From the UHGV virus genome UHGV-1366603: DNA of 64,000 nt. One strand, given 5' to 3'. The position numbers and the translations under genes are program-made. Each line of letters begins with the position of its first letter. Positions within the stretch are counted from its first letter, which is position 1. The notes below the pieces were generated by a model. That model did no database searches. It worked only from the letters and a program-made list of their open reading frames with translations, and had not been told where the DNA came from. Below, piece by piece: positions 8,081 through 44,401 of this stretch. The DNA is from a virus.

Positions 8081-8102
8081 AGATATATTTTACTTAGGTG
8101 AG
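8081..8102 (+). promoter_or_regulatory. candidate phage promoter motif AGATATATTTTACTTAGGTGAG, followed by a hairpin at 8104..8130
   Basis: Member of a recurring AT-rich motif family (see findings); sits at the head of the plus-strand block. Confidence 0.3.
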
Positions 8103-12425: not shown

Positions 12426-12447
12426 AGATATATATTACTCAGGTGAG
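12426..12447 (+). promoter_or_regulatory. candidate phage promoter motif AGATATATATTACTCAGGTGAG, followed by a hairpin
   Basis: Contains TATATTAC; lies between the terminator and the first secreted-protein gene; followed by hairpin AGAGTTAA-GAT-TTAACTCT. Confidence 0.35.
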
Positions 12448-12978: not shown

Positions 12979-13371
12979 GTGAAAATGAATATCAGAACTA
13001 TACTTTATTCAATCATTATTTTCTGTGCAATCGGTATTACTGGCACTTATGCTTTCGGCGATTCGGACGTCCGCCATTACGAACCGGCTCCTGACTCGCC
13101 CATTATCAACCCGGATGAGTCCCCTACGTTAATGCGCAGTTTCGGTAAACTGCAAGTTTATCGCTTAGTACGTGGTGAAACGTGTACCGGATTACTCATT
13201 GCTGACACCCGTGCACAGGTCTACCAACGTCTGACGGATATCGCCTGCGAACAACCAAAAGTCATGTCGGTCAGTATTCATCCGTTAGAGGTCGGTAACT
13301 ATACTGCTGTGGACTTCTTCCATAATGCAGAACTGATTGGTCGTATCACTTTAAATCGTAGCGCTGAATAA
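12979..13371 (+). CDS. small secreted or membrane-anchored protein
   Basis: N-terminal hydrophobic segment ILYSIIIFCAIGITGTYAFG; start may be GTG 12979 or ATG 12985. Confidence 0.55.
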   Translation: MKMNIRTILYSIIIFCAIGITGTYAFGDSDVRHYEPAPDSPIINPDESPTLMRSFGKLQVYRLVRGETCTGLLIADTRAQVYQRLTDIACEQPKVMSVSIHPLEVGNYTAVDFFHNAELIGRITLNRSAE

Positions 13372-13887: not shown

Positions 13888-14298
13888 ATGAAAACGTTTA
13901 TCAAAACTTTACTCGTTGCTGTAACTGTTCTGTTCTCTCTTAACGTAGCAGCAAAAACAATAAAGCTACCGGCGGGTATCAAATACGTCAACAGTACCGA
14001 TGAATTCTACTGCACTGAAATTGACGGCCTGTATTGCCAGACAAAGAATTTGTTTGAATACAAAGGTAACAGATATGTTTTCGTTGTTGAGCAAGGTGGT
14101 GCCTGGTGCTACGACAGCCCTATGTCGGTACTCAACCTGGAAACTTGGAAAGCACAGAAAATTGAATACAAAGACAACCAACTGTGTTCAGGCGAAAACA
14201 AACCGTTCTTCAAAATCAAAAATGGTGTGCCGACTGTAGGTATTATCGACACCTCTGGAGCACCCATCGTTGTAGCTCAGGACAAACTTAAAATCTAA
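13888..14298 (+). CDS. small secreted protein (signal peptide, multiple Cys)
   Basis: N-terminus MKTFIKTLLVAVTVLFSLNVAA; SD AAGGAG. Confidence 0.65.
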   Translation: MKTFIKTLLVAVTVLFSLNVAAKTIKLPAGIKYVNSTDEFYCTEIDGLYCQTKNLFEYKGNRYVFVVEQGGAWCYDSPMSVLNLETWKAQKIEYKDNQLCSGENKPFFKIKNGVPTVGIIDTSGAPIVVAQDKLKI

Positions 14299-14308
14299 GG
14301 AGTAAACC

Positions 14309-14698
14309 ATGCGTCTTATCTGCGCTTTGTTGGCGTTTTTCTCAATCGGAGTTATGGCTTCTACACACATCGACGATTTATTACTTACCCCGGCAACGAA
14401 CACAGACTATCACTACAACCCACCGGGTTTTGAAGTCTGCGAAGGCGATGCAGGCGAATGCCAAGAAGTTGGCGCAGATGGACGCTATATACTCGTAAAA
14501 GCAGACGGCGGGACAACCTGCCCTGCGGGTTATTATTTCGTACTTGACGCTGTAGCAAAAGAGGTACTTCCTGTAACGACCAAAACGTGTGACCCCACAG
14601 TTGTACTAACGCTTGCGAAAAGCAAATCACGTGACCGCCATCTTATCGTCATCGAAGAACGCGGTGAGATGCTAGGCGCTATCGAATTAGATTACTGA
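14309..14698 (+). CDS. small secreted protein (signal peptide, Cys-rich)
   Basis: N-terminus MRLICALLAFFSIGVMAS; SD TAAGGAG. Confidence 0.65.
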   Translation: MRLICALLAFFSIGVMASTHIDDLLLTPATNTDYHYNPPGFEVCEGDAGECQEVGADGRYILVKADGGTTCPAGYYFVLDAVAKEVLPVTTKTCDPTVVLTLAKSKSRDRHLIVIEERGEMLGAIELDY

Positions 14699-15254: not shown

Positions 15255-15262
15255 TTAGCCCG

Positions 15263-15290
15263 GCCCCGCTGTGTACGGGGCTTCTTTTTT
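15263..15290 (+). terminator. rho-independent terminator (GCCCCG-loop-CGGGGC + TTCTTTTTT)
   Basis: Seen directly in the sequence after the stop at 15254. Confidence 0.55.
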
Positions 15291-15923: not shown

Positions 15924-15970
15924 GAGAGAACCTTCGGGTTCTCTCCCTTCTCTTTTATTTTTTTTTCTTT
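15924..15970 (+). terminator. rho-independent terminator (GAGAGAACC-TTCG-GGTTCTCTC + long T-run)
   Basis: 9-bp stem, tetraloop, then TCTTTTATTTTTTTTTCTTTTT. Confidence 0.6.
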
Positions 15971-16002
15971 TTACACCACGCTCCGTGAATATGGAGGTGG
16001 AC

Positions 16003-18507
16003 ATGTTAAAAGTTGAACGTATTGTACTTAAAGGATTTACCGGAATGGGATTACACGAAATCGAAACCTTCGATTTTACTATCCATTCCCCGACCACCAT
16101 TATCCTCGGTGGTAACGGGTGCGGTAAGACCAGCTTACTGTCCGTGTTTCTACCTATCGCACCTTCGAAATCCGAATTCCGTGACGGGGGTTCTTACACC
16201 AACATCTGTTTGGTTAACGACCATCGTTACAAATTTAAGGTTGCACGTAAAGGCAACTCACTGGTTTGCGATATCGAGAACCTGACGACGGGTACCAAAA
16301 TCGTCGAACAAGGTAATGCGAAAGTGTATAACTCTCGTGTAGAAGAAATCACGGGCATTACAAAAGAGATTAAAGAGTTACTGAACGGAGAAGTGCTTTT
16401 AACGGATGCAGGAACGGAGCTGCGTCGTAAGTGGTTCTACCGTTTAAGTACGTCAGACTTAACTTACGCGTTAGGTTTTTATCAACGTTTACGAAAAAAC
16501 CTGACGATGCTAAACGGTGGTATTGAAATCACCAGCCGTAAAATTGCAGAGTTGCGTACCCGCGTAATTGATAACGAGGAAGAACGTCAGCAGTTAGCAA
16601 CACGGTTAAAAGCATTAGAAGTAGATTTACGTGAACTCAACAAACAGATTGAACAACTGCCTGGTCTGAATCGTGACGTTACGGTGGCAACTATTCAATC
16701 GCTATTGCTTAAAATCGAAGCACCGATTAATGCTATCTTGGAACACCGTGGCGGATTACCTACGGAAGAACAGGTAGAGGAAGCACGACGGATTGAAGCC
16801 ACTGCCCGTGAAGCGGTGGTCTCTGCTGAAACAGAACTATCCATGCTAAACAAAGATTTGTCTTTGTTGATGGACGAGTCCACTCGCCAAGATTACCTGA
16901 TGCGGAATCACGAGGGGTTAAAAAACACGGTTGCGAAACTGCGCGAGTTATTAAAGCAGTGGGACACTGAGCATCTTTTCCCTGAACTGTTTGCGGAGAC
17001 CGTTAACATCGACCAGCTTAAAGCAGCGACGGATGCGCGTGTCTGGGGACAACGTTTAGGAACAACGCTGGATGCTATTAAATCAACGGAACGGTTGAAC
17101 GTACTGGAAGAGAAACTGTTGACCTTAGACCAAAACTCATCTGGGTTGCGTGACCGGTTACAACGCGTTGAAAACGTATTGCAGAACCTCAACCACGAAC
17201 GGAATCACTATTTGGAAACTGCCGAGGTTGATTGTCCGCAGTGTCAATTTAAATTCCGTCCGGGTGTCCGTCGATCGCTGCCTGAATTGGAAGAAGCCAT
17301 TCGTGGTCAGATGGAGCAACGTAATACGTTACAGACTCAACTTGATTCCGTATTGCGAGACCGTACGGAATTAGAGTCAGACGTTAATTACATGCGTCAA
17401 GTACGGGAAATTGTTTTAACATACTCGAAAGACCCGGTATTGAGCTTGTTCTTTAAACGACTCCAGGAGCGGAATGTCTTTACGGATAACCGTAGTCAGT
17501 TTGGTAGTTTGTGCGCAGAGTTTGATCGTGAACTTTATTCTGCAATTGAGTACCACGAAACGAAACACCGTTTCGCTAAAGCGGAAAAAGAGTGGGAAAA
17601 TGCAGTTGCAGCGGTAGGTAACGTTGACGGTGCACTACAGCAGAAAATTGCCTTCCAGCAGGAACGTTTGGGTAAGGCAACAGAAACGCTCTCAGAGCGC
17701 CGTAGAGAGCACGCAGTTGCTAATGATACCTTTTGTTATCTAAACGAACTTAAAGCCACTGTAGACAATTTTAATGCGGTTTTTGAGCGTTTAGAGAACG
17801 ATGTTAAGGTAACATTAACCAACACGGTGGTCGAAACGTTATTAAACGCCCGAGAAAACAAGTTGGATGCGTTCACCACAGCACGGGAACGGTACCGTCA
17901 GATGGAAAACGAACTCAACCAACTTACTGCGTTAGAAAAGGAGTTATCAGATTTACAAGCGCAGCAATTCAATAACAAGCTGATGATTCAAGCGTTCTCA
18001 CCTGAGAAAGGGGTATTACGCAAATACTTCTACAACGCTATCGTGAGAATCACGGAATTGATGACGCGGTATATCGAACAAGTCTGGACCTACCCTATGC
18101 GGGTCATGCCGTGCGACTTAACCGACGGTGACTTAGACTACACGTTCCCAGTGCAGTTGAAAACCCATCCTGAGCCGGTACCTGACGTGCGGAAAGGGTC
18201 GAAAGCGCAGCGAGCCATCTTTAATTTGATGTTTCGTTTAACCGCTTACAAAGCCCTGAAACTTCATCAGTATCCGCTACTGTTGGATGAACCGTCAGAA
18301 GGGATGGATGAGGAACACCGAAATAACCTCGTCGGGTTTATTAAAACCCTGGCGAATTCCGGTGAGTTCTCTCAGTTACTGGTGGTATCTCACGAAGCAG
18401 AAATTCATTCAAAACTTAACGAAGCCGCATACTGTGTTATTGAACCTGAAGGCGTAACACTGCCTGCGGTATACAACGAGGGAGTAAAAATTGTCTACGC
18501 AAACTGA
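16003..18507 (+). CDS. Rad50/SbcC/gp46-like ABC ATPase with coiled coil and CPQC zinc hook
   Basis: N-terminal Walker A ILGGNGCGKTSLL; long coiled-coil middle containing ..VDCPQCQF..; C-terminal signature-like GSKAQRAIFNL, Walker B LLLDEPSEGMD and H-loop VVSHE. ATG at 16003 preceded by GGAGGTGG. Confidence 0.7.
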   Translation: MLKVERIVLKGFTGMGLHEIETFDFTIHSPTTIILGGNGCGKTSLLSVFLPIAPSKSEFRDGGSYTNICLVNDHRYKFKVARKGNSLVCDIENLTTGTKIVEQGNAKVYNSRVEEITGITKEIKELLNGEVLLTDAGTELRRKWFYRLSTSDLTYALGFYQRLRKNLTMLNGGIEITSRKIAELRTRVIDNEEERQQLATRLKALEVDLRELNKQIEQLPGLNRDVTVATIQSLLLKIEAPINAILEHRGGLPTEEQVEEARRIEATAREAVVSAETELSMLNKDLSLLMDESTRQDYLMRNHEGLKNTVAKLRELLKQWDTEHLFPELFAETVNIDQLKAATDARVWGQRLGTTLDAIKSTERLNVLEEKLLTLDQNSSGLRDRLQRVENVLQNLNHERNHYLETAEVDCPQCQFKFRPGVRRSLPELEEAIRGQMEQRNTLQTQLDSVLRDRTELESDVNYMRQVREIVLTYSKDPVLSLFFKRLQERNVFTDNRSQFGSLCAEFDRELYSAIEYHETKHRFAKAEKEWENAVAAVGNVDGALQQKIAFQQERLGKATETLSERRREHAVANDTFCYLNELKATVDNFNAVFERLENDVKVTLTNTVVETLLNARENKLDAFTTARERYRQMENELNQLTALEKELSDLQAQQFNNKLMIQAFSPEKGVLRKYFYNAIVRITELMTRYIEQVWTYPMRVMPCDLTDGDLDYTFPVQLKTHPEPVPDVRKGSKAQRAIFNLMFRLTAYKALKLHQYPLLLDEPSEGMDEEHRNNLVGFIKTLANSGEFSQLLVVSHEAEIHSKLNEAAYCVIEPEGVTLPAVYNEGVKIVYAN

Positions 18508-18691
18508 TTGGTGGCGTCAGTTACTAAGCGTTTTAGGGTTTAGCGTCATGGTGCTGGTTGCCATTCTGTACGTGCTATTTTGTATAACGGCGATTTTATG
18601 GGTGGTCTTAGCGTACGCGATTAGACTCGCCTGGGGTTCAATTTGGCACCAACGCGAATGTGAGTGGCGGTGTGTTGGAGGGAAGTCATGA
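18491..18691 (+). CDS. small membrane protein (66 aa)
   Basis: TTG start with GAGGGAG upstream, overlapping the end of the ATPase gene; one long hydrophobic segment. Confidence 0.4.
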   Translation: MSTQTDWWRQLLSVLGFSVMVLVAILYVLFCITAILWVVLAYAIRLAWGSIWHQRECEWRCVGGKS

Positions 18692-18798
18692 TTGAGGGTA
18701 TTCTGTTAACACTTGGGTCGTTGTGGATTATTGGGAAATCCCTCAACTGGCTGATTAATAAGTACGGATGGGCTTTCAAAGGCTCTACGCACAGTTAA
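18688..18798 (+). CDS. small membrane peptide (36 aa)
   Basis: ATG overlaps the upstream stop (ATGA); SD GGAGGGAAG; sequence MIEGILLTLGSLWIIGKSLNWLINKYGWAFKGSTHS. Below the ORF-track size cutoff. Confidence 0.35.
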   Translation: MIEGILLTLGSLWIIGKSLNWLINKYGWAFKGSTHS

Positions 18799-18848
18799 GT
18801 TAGAACCCCCTCCTGGGTAACTGGGAGGGCGTTTTACGAGGGAAAACC

Positions 18849-18977
18849 ATGACTGTTGTCAATACTACCAATGCTGCAATTGGCGCTTTATACAACGCGG
18901 AACTAACATGGGGTGCGGGTTTTATCACCGTACTGCTTCTCGCCGCAGCCGCTTTTATCATTGGACGTTGGTTTTAA
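18849..18977 (+). CDS. small membrane peptide (42 aa)
   Basis: ATG with GAGGGAAAACC upstream; sequence MTVVNTTNAAIGALYNAELTWGAGFITVLLLAAAAFIIGRWF. Below the ORF-track size cutoff. Confidence 0.35.
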   Translation: MTVVNTTNAAIGALYNAELTWGAGFITVLLLAAAAFIIGRWF

Positions 18978-19010: not shown

Positions 19011-19454
19011 ATGGAAATTTATTTGTTGAACGCACTTTCTAAAATCGGTGAAGAACAAGCGAAAGATTTACTCGCACTTCATTACCGTTACTTAGATCAT
19101 CAAGCAACGATGCTGAAAATCAAAACCGCTGTACCGAAATTAAACGTGCGTCAACTGATCGAAGGCAACTGTGTTGTTCTGATTTATATCGACGATGTTG
19201 CGGTGGGTTATTGCAGTTACCGCAATCGCAACGGGGTACTCAAAATTCGTTCGTTATACGTGCTGCCTGATTACCGTCAACGCGGGGTAATGAAAGAAAT
19301 CTTCAAAGCGATAGCCGCTGATGAAGCATTCGGTGAAATTGCCATTGGGATGTACACGAAGTGCAAAGAAGCGAAAGAGTATTTCATTCGTCGTGGCTAC
19401 AAAGCAACCTATTCTCACGATAAAGAATGGGTGGATTTCAGCAAAACTTTCTAA
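19011..19454 (+). CDS. GNAT-family N-acetyltransferase (putative)
   Basis: 147 aa; ..GYCSYRNRNGVLKIRSLYVLPDYRQRGVMKEIF.. resembles GNAT motif A (acetyl-CoA binding). Confidence 0.5.
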   Translation: MEIYLLNALSKIGEEQAKDLLALHYRYLDHQATMLKIKTAVPKLNVRQLIEGNCVVLIYIDDVAVGYCSYRNRNGVLKIRSLYVLPDYRQRGVMKEIFKAIAADEAFGEIAIGMYTKCKEAKEYFIRRGYKATYSHDKEWVDFSKTF

Positions 19455-19520
19455 AACAATAAAGGCTCTCTTGACGTTCCTCACTATGAGTGTGAGATTT
19501 TTACGTCAGGAGAGCTACTT

Positions 19521-19757
19521 ATGTTAAACAGTTTCGGTGTAGGTGGAATGGATACAAGCATTTGCTGGAAAGAATACGAACGCGCAAAAGCATTTCTCCA
19601 GCATCCCAACGTGGGTAAGATCGGTCAGGTGTGTTTTGGTAAACCTGAACTGACGGCCTGTATTCAAGGTGCGTTAGGAACGCTGCCACCTGAATCACCT
19701 TTCGAGCCTAAGGAGAATCCAGATGTTACCAGGAACCCAAACCCCGTATCTATTTAG
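19521..19757 (+). CDS. hypothetical protein (78 aa)
   Basis: ORF track; no motif recognised. Confidence 0.45.
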   Translation: MLNSFGVGGMDTSICWKEYERAKAFLQHPNVGKIGQVCFGKPELTACIQGALGTLPPESPFEPKENPDVTRNPNPVSI

Positions 19758-20170: not shown

Positions 20171-20695
20171 ATGCTTACCTCACTCGGTAAGACCGTTATG
20201 CTAACGATACTTCCAGAATCGGTTATTGACAACGACCTGTTTAACGCCCCTGAGCGCTTCAAGGTCGTTACGATAAATTGCGTAGGGGCAATGGGTCGGG
20301 GTATCGCTTTAGCGTGCAGAGAACGCTATCCTGGGCTTTATCAGGACTACCGGGAACGTTGCTTCGCTAACGAAATACGAATAGGGAATGTGTACGTTTA
20401 TCCCGAGGAAAACTGCATTCTCTTACCAACCAAAACACATTGGAAACTAAAATCCCAGGTTTCTTATGTTATCGCGGGTATCACCGCGTTGGCAGATGCC
20501 GCAGAAAACTTAGAGGGTGGGGTGGCTTTACCGCCGTTAGGGATGGCTAACGGTTGGTTGACAAAAGCTGAACGTCAACAAATCTTTTTGTTTATCGAAA
20601 AGAAACTCGTACCGAGGAGACAACATTACCGTTTCTATTTACCCGATACGCTTTATCAAGAAGCAAAACCTTTAATTCCAAACCTTTTTAAATAG
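20171..20695 (+). CDS. macrodomain protein, TARG1/DarG-like (putative ADP-ribose hydrolase)
   Basis: ..VVTINCVGAMGRGIALACRERYPGLY.. resembles TARG1 ..[24 protein letters not shown]..; downstream ..ILLPTKTHWK.. and ..VALPPLGMANGWL.. parallel TARG1 ..LITKKRASHK.. and ..LSMPRIGCGLDRL.. Start may be ATG 20171 or 20201. Confidence 0.5.
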   Translation: MLTSLGKTVMLTILPESVIDNDLFNAPERFKVVTINCVGAMGRGIALACRERYPGLYQDYRERCFANEIRIGNVYVYPEENCILLPTKTHWKLKSQVSYVIAGITALADAAENLEGGVALPPLGMANGWLTKAERQQIFLFIEKKLVPRRQHYRFYLPDTLYQEAKPLIPNLFK

Positions 20696-20795
20696 ATATT
20701 ATCATTAGGGCACACAACAAAGGAGTTCCAGCTGTCCGCGCCGTGATTTCGTTCTACGGAACACGGAAATGTATAAATCCAACTGGAGAACTAGT

Positions 20796-21482
20796 ATGTT
20801 TCGTATTTTCTTTCTTTTACTGGTAACACTTTTCGCGTTTAACGCATACGCATCCAAATCCGCACCCAGTGCCAAACACCATCGTGAATTCGAAATGATT
20901 CAAGACCGTTTCGAACGTGTAAAACCGTTGATTGTGGAAATCTCCCGAAAGCAGGGCGTCGATCCTAAGTTGATGACCACGCTAATCTATCGGGAATCGC
21001 GGTTTAATCCGAAGGCGTATAATCGAACGTCTAAAGCGCACAGTCTGGTTCAGATGCTACCGAGCACAAAGCGTAATTTGCTAAAACTCTACGGTGCCGA
21101 AATCGGACTTAGTCGTAACGCGGATTTGTATAATCCTCGTAATGCGGTGCTATTGGCTTCCGTCTACGTTAAACATTTAGAAAAGGGGTTGACTAAACGA
21201 CTCAAACGCAAGCCCACTATTGCAGAAATTGCATTGGCTTATCACTGGGGTGAAAGTGGTGCACACGCCAGGATTAAAAGCAAGTCTCGGGCAGCACAAC
21301 GAGAAATGGCGAGCTTTATGAAAGATGCAACGTTCTACAGTGCGAAAATCGACAAGCCTGTAGCATCTCGTCAGCTTGCGTTTGCGAAGAAACCAGAACG
21401 CCAGATTCAGTTAGCGGAAGTTAACCGAATTTGGGATACGATAAACACCAGTTTTCCATTTAAACAAGGAGTCACCCTTTGA
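20796..21482 (+). CDS. secreted soluble lytic transglycosylase (SLT domain), endolysin candidate
   Basis: Signal-peptide-like N-terminus MFRIFFLLLVTLFAFNAYA; SLT motifs ..LIYRESRFNPKA.. (catalytic Glu-Ser) and ..AHSLVQMLPST..; ATG at 20796 has GGAGAA upstream (ORF-track start at 20769). Confidence 0.65.
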   Translation: MFRIFFLLLVTLFAFNAYASKSAPSAKHHREFEMIQDRFERVKPLIVEISRKQGVDPKLMTTLIYRESRFNPKAYNRTSKAHSLVQMLPSTKRNLLKLYGAEIGLSRNADLYNPRNAVLLASVYVKHLEKGLTKRLKRKPTIAEIALAYHWGESGAHARIKSKSRAAQREMASFMKDATFYSAKIDKPVASRQLAFAKKPERQIQLAEVNRIWDTINTSFPFKQGVTL

Positions 21483-21988
21483 GCATCGTTGTAACCGATT
21501 GGTATAAAGGTATCACTAAGGCTACCCAAATTACTGCCCAGGACGTGTACAGTATCGTTCGTAGCAGTAACGAAGACCAGATAAAGTCCGACGAAGACTT
21601 TGCAACGCGTCATGAGTTTTACGATGCCCTTAAAACGGCTTTCGGTGATGACGAAGAAGAAGGTTTAGAGTTTGACTGGAACGTCAACCTTGCCTTGTTG
21701 TGGATTTGCGGATTACGTCCGAGTGTGAAAGACACGGAGCAAGGGAAAGTTCTGTTGTGGCGCTACACCGGTAAATACAATCCGAACCAGGTCTTTAAAG
21801 AAGCGTATATGGAAGCCACTGTAGAGTTACAGAATCTGCTGTTGGGTGAGAACACCTACTGTCAACGCAGCTTCCTGACGATTCTGGAGAAACTGGCGAC
21901 TACACACAAAATCTGGCGTCAAGCAGATGCCCCTGAACACATCTTCGTTCTGGAATATGCTGTGATTCCAAACCAACCGTTCTTTTAA
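21479..21988 (+). CDS. hypothetical protein (169 aa)
   Basis: TTG start overlapping the upstream stop, with AAGGAG upstream. Confidence 0.5.
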   Translation: MSIVVTDWYKGITKATQITAQDVYSIVRSSNEDQIKSDEDFATRHEFYDALKTAFGDDEEEGLEFDWNVNLALLWICGLRPSVKDTEQGKVLLWRYTGKYNPNQVFKEAYMEATVELQNLLLGENTYCQRSFLTILEKLATTHKIWRQADAPEHIFVLEYAVIPNQPFF

Positions 21989-21994
21989 TACTTG

Positions 21995-22030
21995 CCCCTA
22001 ATCCGATTGGATTAGGGGTACTTTTATTTA
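21995..22030 (+). terminator. rho-independent terminator (CCCCTAATCC-GATT-GGATTAGGGG + T-run)
   Basis: 10-bp perfect stem followed by TACTTTTATTTATT. Confidence 0.6.
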
Positions 22031-22051
22031 TTCCCCTAAAGGAGCAAAGGT

Positions 22052-22531
22052 ATGTTGAAGTTTATCTGGCGTTACCCAACCCGCTTTTGGTTCGTGGTAT
22101 TAGAGGTAATCACCGTTTTACTGTTAGTGACGTTCGTAAACGCCTCTACGAAACAAATGGTGATTTTCTGTGTATTCGTGGCTATACCGCTGTGGGTGTT
22201 TGCAAAGATTATTAAGTTTTACATGATAAGCTGGGCGAACTACACCTGTCCATTTAAACCCAGAGAAATCATGAACTGGTTGATGTATATCGAAGACCGT
22301 TTACCCGCTCAGTCTAAAACGTTAGGTTGGCAATCGATGTTGGATATTGCGCTAGAAACAAACGCAAAATTCCCTGGGTCAAAGAATCCTTATTTGCTGC
22401 TGGCTGTTATTGTTGCCCAGCAGAAACGTGCAGGCGAACGTTGGTTACCGAAAGAAGCGAAAGAGTATATTCGTAAACATCCGAAGGCTTTCTATTCCGT
22501 AGGTCAATGGCGTAACCTCCCACTCTTTTAA
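22052..22531 (+). CDS. membrane protein (two N-terminal TM segments), function unknown
   Basis: SD AAAGGAG; hydrophobic stretches FWFVVLEVITVLLLVTFV and MVIFCVFVAIPLWVFAKII. Confidence 0.6.
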   Translation: MLKFIWRYPTRFWFVVLEVITVLLLVTFVNASTKQMVIFCVFVAIPLWVFAKIIKFYMISWANYTCPFKPREIMNWLMYIEDRLPAQSKTLGWQSMLDIALETNAKFPGSKNPYLLLAVIVAQQKRAGERWLPKEAKEYIRKHPKAFYSVGQWRNLPLF

Positions 22532-26195: not shown

Positions 26196-26699
26196 ATGGG
26201 TTCATTTCTTAAAGTGCTTCCGTTCTTCATTCAGATGTTGATGGAAGCATTTAAACCAGGAGAAGGAGAAAACGTATCAAGAGCAAACAAGATAATGACT
26301 TTAATCATCACGGTCTTGTTATCCTATTCGACTTTCGTCTCCTATGCGTACGTAGTGCAGTTTCACAAGCTCGTTACAGTACAATCTCATGATCAATACA
26401 TGTCGCAATCTTACCAAGAGATGAAGCAAGATCGTGACAAACTGAAAGATGATAATGGTAGATTATACGACAAGCTCTTTATTTGCCTCGGCCAGAAACC
26501 GCCATATGAAAGCGGGTACAGCACGGTAAAAGAAGACAACTCTACCAAAGATTTAACACCTAAGAAACCAGAAACTCCTGTTAGCCCAGCTTCAACACCA
26601 GAACAACGCAAAGAAGCTTCGGCGCGACCTGTTGGTAGTCAAAACGCTAACAGTTTCCGTCAGGAGATCATAAAGACGTTATCCTCACCTAAGGAGTAA
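26196..26699 (+). CDS. hypothetical membrane-anchored protein with disordered Ser/Pro/Lys-rich C-terminus
   Basis: SD GAGGTGA; N-terminal hydrophobic segments. Confidence 0.55.
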   Translation: MGSFLKVLPFFIQMLMEAFKPGEGENVSRANKIMTLIITVLLSYSTFVSYAYVVQFHKLVTVQSHDQYMSQSYQEMKQDRDKLKDDNGRLYDKLFICLGQKPPYESGYSTVKEDNSTKDLTPKKPETPVSPASTPEQRKEASARPVGSQNANSFRQEIIKTLSSPKE

Positions 26700-26702
26700 C
26701 TG

Positions 26703-27158
26703 ATGAAATTGCTGTTATTCATCATGATTTTGTGCGTGGGTTTGGTGAGTAATAGCTATGGAGAACCCGGTAAACGGCCATCCTATACTGCGTTACAACC
26801 TCCGCCAGCGCCGCCTATCATGCTAAATTGGAAGATTGATAAAGACGCGATGCGGGAATATGTTGCGGATGTGAATACATACGCTTATTACGTTTATCTC
26901 TACACACGAAACTTAAATCAACAAGCAGTCAAGCGCGGGTGGAATCCACCGATGTTAGCGCCTATCTGCGAACGGTTTGAAATTCCTAAATTACATTCCG
27001 TTCCAGAGAAGATGTTATTAGACGACAAAGCGTTAACGCCACAAGAAATCAGTCGCGATTTATCACGTAAACTGAATTCGTTGTTGTGGAATTATCGCTC
27101 TGACCGGCAAGCTTTATTAGACGCCTACGATCAGTATCTGACAACGTGTTTGAACTGA
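26703..27158 (+). CDS. small secreted protein (signal peptide)
   Basis: N-terminus MKLLLFIMILCVGLVSNSYG; SD TAAGGAG. Confidence 0.6.
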   Translation: MKLLLFIMILCVGLVSNSYGEPGKRPSYTALQPPPAPPIMLNWKIDKDAMREYVADVNTYAYYVYLYTRNLNQQAVKRGWNPPMLAPICERFEIPKLHSVPEKMLLDDKALTPQEISRDLSRKLNSLLWNYRSDRQALLDAYDQYLTTCLN

Positions 27159-29494: not shown

Positions 29495-30162
29495 TGCTGA
29501 TTGTTTTTAGTCATGCGTTATCGATGGCACCGAGTTATATTCAGATACGCTTTTCAGCAATTGCGCGTCAGCAGTGGGGCTTTAAAGCCCCCTATTCTGA
29601 CGACCACTATACTCTTGGTGAAGTAGCACTTGAACTTGCCTTACGCTCATTGTGGGAAATCATCGCATTGTATAATGCAGGTTGTGATATACCGAAAGAT
29701 TGTTTCCCGCAACGGTTGATTGCGCAAGGTACTACGAACACTTACGGTAATCCGGCATTGGTAGAAGAGTGCTTAGGCTACGCTAACCAGTCTGGGGAAC
29801 TGCAACACAACTTTAATCTGGTGATTAACAAAGTCTGGAGTGAGCTGGAAAGCTATCCTGAAAAGATTATCTGGTTTGATCGTAACCAATTCGTTAAGGA
29901 GGTGGCCAGTAAACGACCTGTTCGTTTAGTTACCTTAAAACCCGCCGACCTTGATTTGAAACAAACGTATCCCTTCCCGGAAGAAATTCGGCTTTCTCCA
30001 GAAACTGTAGGTCACACTATTTTCAAACAAGGTGACGCCTGGATATTGCCTCACGATCTAGACCGTTTCCTGCTCAACTCCGATCAGATTCACTCCGGCT
30101 ATGATTCTCTCGTGAAAGCGTTTCACATCGATCCCTATTTCGCTAAAAACTTTCTTAGATAG
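29494..30162 (+). CDS. hypothetical protein
   Basis: ATG overlapping the upstream stop (TGATG); ORF track 29491..30162. Confidence 0.55.
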   Translation: MLIVFSHALSMAPSYIQIRFSAIARQQWGFKAPYSDDHYTLGEVALELALRSLWEIIALYNAGCDIPKDCFPQRLIAQGTTNTYGNPALVEECLGYANQSGELQHNFNLVINKVWSELESYPEKIIWFDRNQFVKEVASKRPVRLVTLKPADLDLKQTYPFPEEIRLSPETVGHTIFKQGDAWILPHDLDRFLLNSDQIHSGYDSLVKAFHIDPYFAKNFLR

Positions 30163-43448: not shown

Positions 43449-43859
43449 ATGCGTGAACATATCCTCGATCTTAGTGTTTCTGTAGAAGAACTTGTCAATC
43501 AACTTGGCGGCACGGGTCATGGTCTTCATTCAAAGACGAACAGTATAAGCCATCTCCTCGACCCAGAGTACGAACGAAAACTCCACATGATCGCAACCGT
43601 TCGTAACAAAGCCATGCACGAGAATATTCTCCCTACCAACATTCAAGCCTTTGAACAAGCCGTAGCAGATACAAAAGTTTATTTGCTTGACCTCTGTTTG
43701 CGCCAAGAAAACCCTAGCCAGTCGGAACCCAAAGAGCCGGGTAAAAGAAAGCTTGGGTGGTCTGAAATGAATAAGAAGCAAAGAATCTATTACGGTATCG
43801 GTATTGCTATCGGCTGTGTCGCTATTGGTATTTTCGGTATAACAGGACCTAAAAGATGA
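43449..43859 (+). CDS. hypothetical protein with C-terminal TM anchor (136 aa)
   Basis: C-terminal hydrophobic segment IYYGIGIAIGCVAIGIFGI. Confidence 0.55.
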   Translation: MREHILDLSVSVEELVNQLGGTGHGLHSKTNSISHLLDPEYERKLHMIATVRNKAMHENILPTNIQAFEQAVADTKVYLLDLCLRQENPSQSEPKEPGKRKLGWSEMNKKQRIYYGIGIAIGCVAIGIFGITGPKR

Positions 43860-44401
43860 AACTCGTAAACATGACGGACGAGGTTTCTAAGTTTATTGTT
43901 TTCTTAGAAAACCAAAATGTAAAGCCGGGTGAGAACATTGACGAATGGATGCTTAGACTACACAGCACGATAGGTAAAGTGTGTGGGTCAATCACCTCAA
44001 TCGACAGTTTAGGTCTGGCCAGAAACATTGGGGTAGCCTTTTGGGATATTGCTGCTTTTGTCTACGTTACTAATAAAGGAAACTTACACCCGTTCTTAAG
44101 CTCTCTGGTAAGGATGAATGGGGTTCGTAAATGGAGCAACGACCCTATCGTGATACAGGGAAGTAAATTAGTTAACGCGGCAGTACGAACTATTGCTCTT
44201 GGGCAATGCCGTACGGGAAAATACACGGACAAATGTGAGATAGAACTCACGACGTTAACTTATCGCCTGGCGTCTGTTGCCAGAACCAACGGCTTAGTCG
44301 TAGACCGCGTTATCAAAAACGGTCGCGAGACGTGGGTTAAGGAACAAAACAAAGGCGATTTTCTCTCTTATCTTGAATTACACAAAATGATTAAAGGATA
44401 A
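43856..44401 (+). CDS. hypothetical protein (181 aa)
   Basis: ORF track; start overlaps the upstream stop. Confidence 0.55.
   Translation: MKLVNMTDEVSKFIVFLENQNVKPGENIDEWMLRLHSTIGKVCGSITSIDSLGLARNIGVAFWDIAAFVYVTNKGNLHPFLSSLVRMNGVRKWSNDPIVIQGSKLVNAAVRTIALGQCRTGKYTDKCEIELTTLTYRLASVARTNGLVVDRVIKNGRETWVKEQNKGDFLSYLELHKMIKG

Follow-up and report, generated by a model that had tools for sequence, protein, structure and literature searches.

The closest described counterpart of the genes considered here is found in the jumbo phage SPN3US, in which the SbcC gene gp186 is essential (PMC5105663) and is followed by gp187, encoding a transmembrane (TM) protein of 63 amino acids (aa) that has been compared with gp47.1 of phage T4 (PMC5105663, Thomas et al. 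2016). T4 gp47.1 has been proposed as the membrane anchor of gp46/47 (PMC5105663). The DNA analysed here is a 64,000-nucleotide (nt) stretch of the UHGV virus genome UHGV-1366603, called the window, and all positions refer to this whole stretch unless another record is named. In the window, an SbcC/Rad50-like SMC ATPase gene is followed on the same strand by three very small open reading frames (ORFs), A, B and D, named after the families A to F into which the genes between sbcC and a downstream GNAT acetyltransferase gene are sorted in this analysis. The three are very likely genuine, conserved genes for very small membrane proteins. They are direct homologues of SPN3US gp187 and Asesino gp208 (A), of the phrog_13448 peptides (B) and of SPN3US gp189 (D), with the same order, overlaps and motifs after SbcC, at an identity to the SPN3US and Asesino proteins of only 25-60%. 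The trio thus adds new members to known orphan families; it is an annotation result and no new kind of system.

ORF A (18491..18691, + strand) encodes 66 aa and starts with TTG. It overlaps the end of the SbcC gene, whose stop codon occupies 18505-18507, by 17 nt, and its Shine-Dalgarno (SD) sequence GAGGGAG (18478..18484, +) lies 6 nt before the TTG, within the conserved SbcC codons N-E-G-V. ORF B (18688..18798, +; 36 aa) is preceded by the SD GGAGGGA (18677..18683, +), and its ATG start shares bases with the TGA of ORF A in the form ATGA. ORF D (18849..18977, +; 42 aa) begins with ATG behind the SD GAGGGA (18838..18843, +). An initial sequence-only reading of this DNA had pointed to three tiny hydrophobic ORFs of 66, 36 and 42 aa, each with its own ribosome-binding site, the first two overlapping their upstream neighbours. 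The sequence and the ORF list bear out all of this, with a GGAGG-type SD before each ORF, the TTG within the end of the ATPase gene and the ATGA junction.

The same reading described each product as mainly one TM helix, which holds in part. All three are hydrophobic, with maximum Kyte-Doolittle values (15-residue window) of 2.96 for A, 1.89 for B and 2.72 for D. However, the apolar run of A spans about 39 residues (10-48), with Arg/Lys on either side, a length sufficient for a two-helix hairpin, and the hydrophobicity of B is borderline, a short N-terminal apolar helix being followed by an aromatic and basic tail. AlphaFold2 (AF2) models A as one continuous helix over residues 4-63. ORF D joins a polar stretch of 20 N-terminal residues to a C-terminal TM helix ending in WF. 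The invariant residues of A are R9, Y27, F30, C31, Y42, E58 and R60. In each of the three families the conserved motifs lie outside the membrane core: a C-terminal CEWR motif in A, W21 and a GWAFxG tail in B, and the N-terminus MTxxNxxNA..Y..W (M-T-x-x-N-x-x-N-A...Y...W) in D.

Several lines of evidence identify the ORFs as genes. Absence of conservation in related phages, which the sequence-only reading had named among the grounds for giving up the ORFs, is not what is seen: every relative examined (16 related loci, with SbcC identity from 87% down to 52%) keeps the counterparts of A, B and D open, with order and overlaps the same. Three hydrophobic ORFs on one strand, each 36 codons or longer and together covering 86% of the region, came up in 1 of 3000 shuffles of that region. 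The ratio of nonsynonymous to synonymous substitution rates (dN/dS) against relatives at 87% identity is 0.30-0.33 for A, 0.32-0.40 for B and 0.16-0.22 for D, and 0.05 for the GNAT gene against the same relatives. For SbcC it is 0.02-0.03 in the closer pairs (the window with L004, and L005 with L009), while the comparison of the window with L005 and L009 yields no value through saturation of dS. The substitutions are rich in third positions in A and D and poor in second positions in B.

ORFs as short as these could be chance products of a spacer rich in hydrophobic codons, and the lack of an ATG start in A, together with its +1 frame relative to SbcC across the overlap, could be taken for a frameshift-made, membrane-anchored SbcC isoform. 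That A, B and D are not independent genes in either of these senses is highly improbable. Chance is contradicted by the conservation, by dN/dS values below 1 and by clade-wide homologues, and a correctly spaced SD stands before each start. The N-terminus of ORF A resembles that of its ATG-started homologues (MQTQHKGWR versus MSTQTDWWR), and the TTG start is supported because the residues before the first internal Met are conserved in those homologues. The frame of A contains a TAA two codons upstream of the TTG, and the sequence shows no evident slippery heptamer. A fused SbcC-A product made by frameshifting is rejected on account of this in-frame stop and of the conserved SD.

The three families are narrowly distributed. 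ORF A matches phrog_16515 in hmmscan (E = 3e-6, residues 1-60 of the 62-position profile) and reaches E values down to 1e-24 in a clade profile search. ORF B, the most widely conserved of the three, matches phrog_13448 (E = 1.8e-12, residues 1-34), is found by tblastn in 31 phage records, and is related to the Machinavirus version by hhalign (probability 96%, E = 2.7e-9). For ORF D the best PHROG match is weak (E = 0.64, possibly phrog_29196) and tblastn gives no match, probably through the low-complexity filter. An alignment-based search recovers the gp189-type proteins of SPFM17, SPAsTU and pEa_SNUABM_29 at E = 1e-16 to 1e-20, and this recovery supports homology of D to SPN3US gp189, as judged from the alignments; the PHROG assignment is not supported. 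Profile searches of a collection of 5.8 billion proteins return the A, B and D families at E = 1e-14 to 1e-25, in this clade only. Pfam scans of A, B and D give nothing significant.

All three peptides are already on record as 'hypothetical proteins', annotated unevenly. The records of SPN3US (L002 6192-6296) and Asesino (L001 6195-6305) lack an annotation for the B homologue (34-36 aa), which is annotated in phiEaH2, pEa_SNUABM_29, SPAsTU and SPFM17; ORF A is called from an internal ATG in one metagenome-assembled genome (MAG) (P0025, 47 aa). An E-type ORF in SPN3US (L002 6589-6696) likewise has no annotation. The exact 42-aa ORF D peptide (P0040) occurs on 565 contigs, Salmonella and E. coli isolate assemblies among them. 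The suggestion of the sequence-only reading that such peptides would be missed by routine annotation is therefore right for the B homologue in the SPN3US and Asesino records and wrong for the four other phages and for D. The contigs with P0040 include NCBI assemblies labelled Salmonella enterica serovar Chester and E. coli, and Shigella flexneri assemblies contain A-family relatives. Phages of this type are frequently met in enterobacterial data, from isolates and metagenomes alike.

Across the relatives, up to six small genes lie between sbcC and the GNAT gene, and the trio of the window is a cut-down form of this variable cluster, which has three to six genes, nearly all of them for predicted membrane proteins. 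The families present in relatives only are C (about 70 aa, two TM domains (TMDs), RPPLLRDPAYD motif; the gp188 family), E (about 35 aa, ending in LTQGWF) and F (a basic, non-membrane protein). The window clade retains A, B and D, with C, E and F missing; Erskinevirus lacks D, and pEa_SNUABM_29 lacks C. By hhalign, D and E show no relation, the first gene of the Machinavirus cluster is a positional analogue only of A (probability 4.5%), and none of A, B and D is related to the Derbicusvirus peptides. Small hydrophobic genes that are not homologous to the trio follow SbcC in the same coupled arrangement in Derbicusvirus (Phobos gp182/183) and in 201phi2-1 (gp251, gp252). In 201phi2-1, gp251 (41 aa) overlaps the SbcC stop, and an unannotated 59-aa ORF with two predicted TMDs (L030 2539-2718) lies between gp252 and gp253. 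Seven phages (phiKZ, PCH45, RSF1, VP4B, Joad, LAh10 and Deimos-Minion) possess an SbcC homologue with no coupled small TM gene.

On sequence grounds the window belongs to a jumbo phage of the SPN3US/Asesino type. Its SbcC gene (15997..18507, +; 836 aa) is a homologue of SPN3US gp186 and phiKZ gp165, and the protein matches Pfam SMC_N and AAA_15, both below the family cut-offs. By tblastn its identity is 69% to gp207 of Erwinia phage Asesino, 58% to gp186 of Salmonella phage SPN3US and 25% to phiKZ gp165, and its C-terminus VYNEGV is kept in relatives. Megablast of the region against phage records gives no match; IMG/VR holds contigs nearly identical to the window, together with contigs at 87% identity. 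The conserved downstream border of the small-gene cluster is the GNAT gene (19011..19454, +; Pfam Acetyltransf_1, E = 2e-8), with the homologues Asesino gp212 and SPN3US gp191. A macro-domain (Appr-1-p processing) gene (20171-20695) lies, with the GNAT gene, between the small-peptide cluster and the SLT gene described below; GNAT and macro-domain genes are typical host-modifying or anti-defence accessory genes.

The cluster is divided by a stem-loop (18801..18836, +) that begins 3 nt past the stop of B. It consists of a 9-bp GC-rich stem (18808-18816 / 18821-18829) with a GUAA loop, followed by CGUUUUACG, and folds at -22.8 kcal/mol (z = -2.9). This hairpin separates sbcC-A-B from a D-GNAT unit. 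It is terminator-like with only 4 U, and for that reason escaped the consensus terminator scan. At the corresponding site in L005 and L009 there is another hairpin, so that the position is conserved and the sequence is not. A further hairpin of the window lies at 19480-19496. Since A starts in the last SbcC codons and B starts on the stop of A, both are probably translated from the sbcC mRNA by coupling. Start/stop overlaps between unrelated adjacent genes are common in the window.

The timing of this transcript can be approached from promoter motifs. A conserved AT-rich early motif is known from jumbo phages of this type (PMC7598289). In the window, exact copies of the early-promoter-like motif ATATWTTACNNAGGTG stand at 8085 and 12430. 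The AT-rich motif ATAT(A/T)TTACNNAGGTG is an exact repeat at 8085-8100 and 12430-12445, with weaker copies at 30161 and 38758, upstream of + strand gene blocks, and probably represents the promoter motif used by the virion RNA polymerase for early genes of the phage. No such motif stands directly before sbcC, and two strong terminator hairpins (15262-15282 and 15924-15945) precede the gene; from these two features, sbcC-A-B is probably not an early transcript. The transcriptome paper on 201phi2-1 does not mention the SbcC operon. A second element, TTTT(T)AC, follows terminator-like hairpins and precedes genes at 15968, 18832, 19498, 22533, 34731, 42992 and 43386, and 6 of the 12 + strand copies of TTTTTAC fall in the intergenic 8% of the window; it could be a promoter element or merely reflect terminator U-tracts. 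The block downstream of the early-promoter-like motif encodes three small secreted proteins of about 130 aa with N-terminal signal peptides (12979-13371, 13888-14298 and 14309-14698; phrog_9424, phrog_8968 and phrog_5248).

As to function, the sequence-only reading had suggested that the peptides could be holin-like, antiholin-like or membrane anchors, all of which are hypothetical roles. A role in lysis timing is the leading possibility for A, B and D, put forward tentatively and with low confidence. Holins are normally expressed late, and the S68 pinholin of phage 21 has two TMDs in about 70 aa. The size and charge layout of ORF A resemble those of a class II holin or pinholin, which it approaches in hydrophobic length, basic flanks and charged C-terminal tail. 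A, B and D are each small proteins with at least one TM domain predicted from Kyte-Doolittle values, as looked for in holins. In the pinholin setting the endolysin is exported without a holin, and the window likewise encodes an endolysin candidate with a signal peptide. This is an SLT lytic transglycosylase (20769..21482, +; Pfam SLT, E = 4e-14), a homologue of SPN3US gp198 with a cleavable-looking signal peptide (..FNAYA before SK) and with similarity to the catalytic domain of phiKZ gp144 (E = 7e-8). It is the only endolysin candidate near the cluster, 1.8 kb downstream of D. A Sec-exported endolysin needs only a membrane-depolarising protein of the pinholin type.

In the proposed mechanism, the A, B and D peptides would insert into the host inner membrane. 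A would be a pinholin-like protein with two TMDs in N-in/C-in topology, whose accumulation would finally depolarise the membrane, and depolarisation would then activate the already exported signal-peptide SLT. B (N-out/C-in, with its GWAF tail) and D (polar N-terminus and TM helix) might be single-pass partners or antiholin-like modulators. In Asesino, no TM gene lies beside the endolysin; its holin should therefore be encoded elsewhere, and the A/B/C/E cluster provides the nearest TM proteins. It is conceivable, at a similarly tentative level, that A-B(-D) constitutes the missing pinholin-like permeabilising and timing part, tied to the essential SbcC gene, or else that A is a membrane tether of the SbcCD nuclease.

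A number of observations weigh against the lysis-timing role. Unlike class II holins, A has no homology to the class, is not beside the endolysin and is coupled to a DNA-repair gene, and its two-TMD topology is only putative; the hairpin form is not supported by AF2, which gives one continuous helix. The best match of A, B and D to a holin family is Pfam Phage_holin_3_6 at E = 0.58 and 10.7 bits, against a cut-off of 28.4. The PHROG families of A and B carry no function, phrog_16515 and phrog_13448 being listed under 'unknown function' and not under 'lysis', and the A-family profile finds nothing outside the clade among 1.84 billion representatives. The SLT gene is six genes past D, counting a 78-aa ORF at 19521-19757, which places the trio outside a lysis cassette. 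Coupling of A and B to an essential DNA-metabolism gene suggests non-late expression, and the start/stop overlaps are themselves generic between unrelated neighbours in the window. In three of four lineages (the window, SPN3US and Huxley) a protein with two TMDs is encoded two genes after the endolysin and is a better-placed holin candidate. Lysis by phiKZ uses an unrelated class III holin (PMC12894885). A spanin identity of A, B and D is rejected: no lipobox is present, B and D have no Cys, and C31, C57 and C61 of A are outside a lipobox context.

The rival holin candidate of the window is a 159-aa protein with two N-terminal TM helices (22052..22531, +; phrog_20030). Between it and the SLT gene lies the gene of a conserved acidic cytoplasmic protein (21479-21988, phrog_8114), which overlaps the SLT gene. 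The positional analogues of the 159-aa protein are SPN3US gp200 and Huxley gp210/211; it has no sequence similarity to SPN3US gp200, so the relation is one of position only. The stretch 20769-22531 is a possible core lysis cassette, and its layout recurs in SPN3US (gp198-200) and Huxley (gp208-211), where the 2-TMD proteins are unrelated. The SLT homologues of SPN3US, Asesino and Huxley are labelled 'putative endolysin' and all keep the signal peptide; the signal-peptide SLT is conserved in four genera. The order of SLT, acidic protein and 2-TMD protein recalls the phiKZ order of holin, regulator and endolysin (PMC12894885).

Further downstream, 7.2 kb from D, a candidate spanin pair (26196..27158, +) comprises an i-spanin of 167 aa with an N-terminal TMD (phrog_8719) and a Pro-rich o-spanin of 151 aa with a signal peptide (phrog_8165); both PHROG families are listed under unknown function. 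The second spanin gene carries a lipobox in SPN3US (gp205, LLTGC), Asesino (gp224, LLVGC) and Huxley (gp216, LLTAC), and the corresponding motif of the window candidate, IMILC (MKLLLFIMILCVG), is atypical. In this phage group the small-gene cluster always lies between sbcC and a neighbourhood with a Sec-exported SLT and a spanin pair. In the distant relatives Joad (an Erwinia phage; L029 4057-4755) and LAh10 (an Aeromonas phage; L032 4162-4920), a signal-peptide SLT follows directly after SbcC, which indicates that envelope-acting genes have long resided downstream of sbcC. This arrangement suggests an old SbcC-endolysin adjacency, pushed apart by small-gene insertions in the SPN3US-type phages. 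The genes that follow sbcC thus form an envelope-directed neighbourhood in which GNAT and macro-domain genes are interspersed.

The phiKZ lysis cassette gp141-gp144 (PMC12894885) belongs to the same broad lineage and offers a described system for comparison, SbcC and the SLT catalytic domain being common to phiKZ and the window. Like phiKZ, the window has an SLT enzyme and a candidate i-/o-spanin pair. The phiKZ endolysin has no signal peptide, whereas the SLT of the window has one. The holin of phiKZ, gp142, has 131 aa, belongs to class III and carries a large cytoplasmic domain (PMC12894885), and no homologues of A, B or D follow phiKZ gp165. BLAST of phiKZ gp139-144 against the window finds the SLT domain only, with no counterpart of gp142 or of the regulator gp143. 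At 43449-44401, a 136-aa protein with a cytoplasmic domain of about 110 residues and a C-terminal TMD has a gross topology like that of gp142, and a 181-aa ORF overlaps and follows its gene. The similarity of this tail-anchored protein to gp142 is not significant (E = 0.33), nor is there significant similarity to gp143 or a PHROG match. No holin or lysis system for SPN3US-type phages is described in the literature searched, and genome annotations of this phage group list no holin, which favours a lysis role for the trio.

The position of A at the end of sbcC raises a second explanation, that A, perhaps with B, tethers or regulates the SbcC/SbcD nuclease at the inner membrane through its cytoplasmic C-terminal RxCEWR. 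This is unlikely. The start of A overlaps or abuts the SbcC stop in every SPN3US, Asesino and Machina lineage, yet gene overlaps are generic in the window genome. The conserved residues of A cluster in the predicted cytoplasmic tail, where contact with the nuclease would be made, and non-homologous hydrophobic ORFs occupy the same coupled place in Derbicusvirus and 201phi2-1; the seven phages listed above nevertheless have an SbcC homologue without a coupled TM gene, including phiKZ, in which this homologue is core and apparently essential. Phages related to phiKZ replicate their DNA in a protein shell away from the membrane, which also counts against a tether. The anchor idea has been published for SPN3US gp187, although SbcD is encoded far away in SPN3US (PMC5105663). 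T4 47.1, encoding a predicted membrane protein of 46 aa, overlaps gene 47 by 4 nt. Both gp47.1 and A are thus tiny hydrophobic proteins whose genes have a start/stop overlap with a gene of the SbcCD family. However, gp47.1 (phrog_6693) precedes the SbcD-like gene 47 while A (phrog_16515) follows SbcC, the two proteins show no visible sequence relation, and the anchor role of gp47.1 is only proposed.

The evolutionary behaviour of the cluster bears on a third explanation, in which A, B and D are other envelope-directed accessory peptides in a permissive slot, active for instance in superinfection exclusion, in anti-defence or transporter blocking, or as an assembly factor. This too is unlikely, though slightly less so than a tether. 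The peptides evolve fast: where SbcC and GNAT share 86-87% identity, A shares 53%, B 50-58% and D 64-67%. Genera differ by gain and loss of families C, D, E and F, and the families are confined to the clade, but no genome of the group lacks B and most have A, a steadier presence than is typical of arms-race cargo. The GNAT and macro-domain neighbours fit an accessory, host-modifying context, whereas the slot itself holds almost only membrane peptides and not mixed cargo. Small TM proteins of large lytic phages, such as T4 Imm, Sp and Ac, mostly have no role in lysis, which favours an accessory role; no homology to a known exclusion or anti-defence protein was found for A, B or D.

In conclusion, the locus illustrates that small membrane proteins are systematically under-annotated, B being missing from the SPN3US and Asesino records and the start of A being miscalled in a MAG. 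For SPN3US-type phages, the obvious holin candidates are the small-peptide cluster and the 2-TMD proteins encoded next to the endolysin. If A tethers SbcC, the result would bear on the old suggestion of a membrane anchor in T4. Either role, lysis timing or tethering, would, if true, be the first function for these clade-wide orphan micro-proteins.

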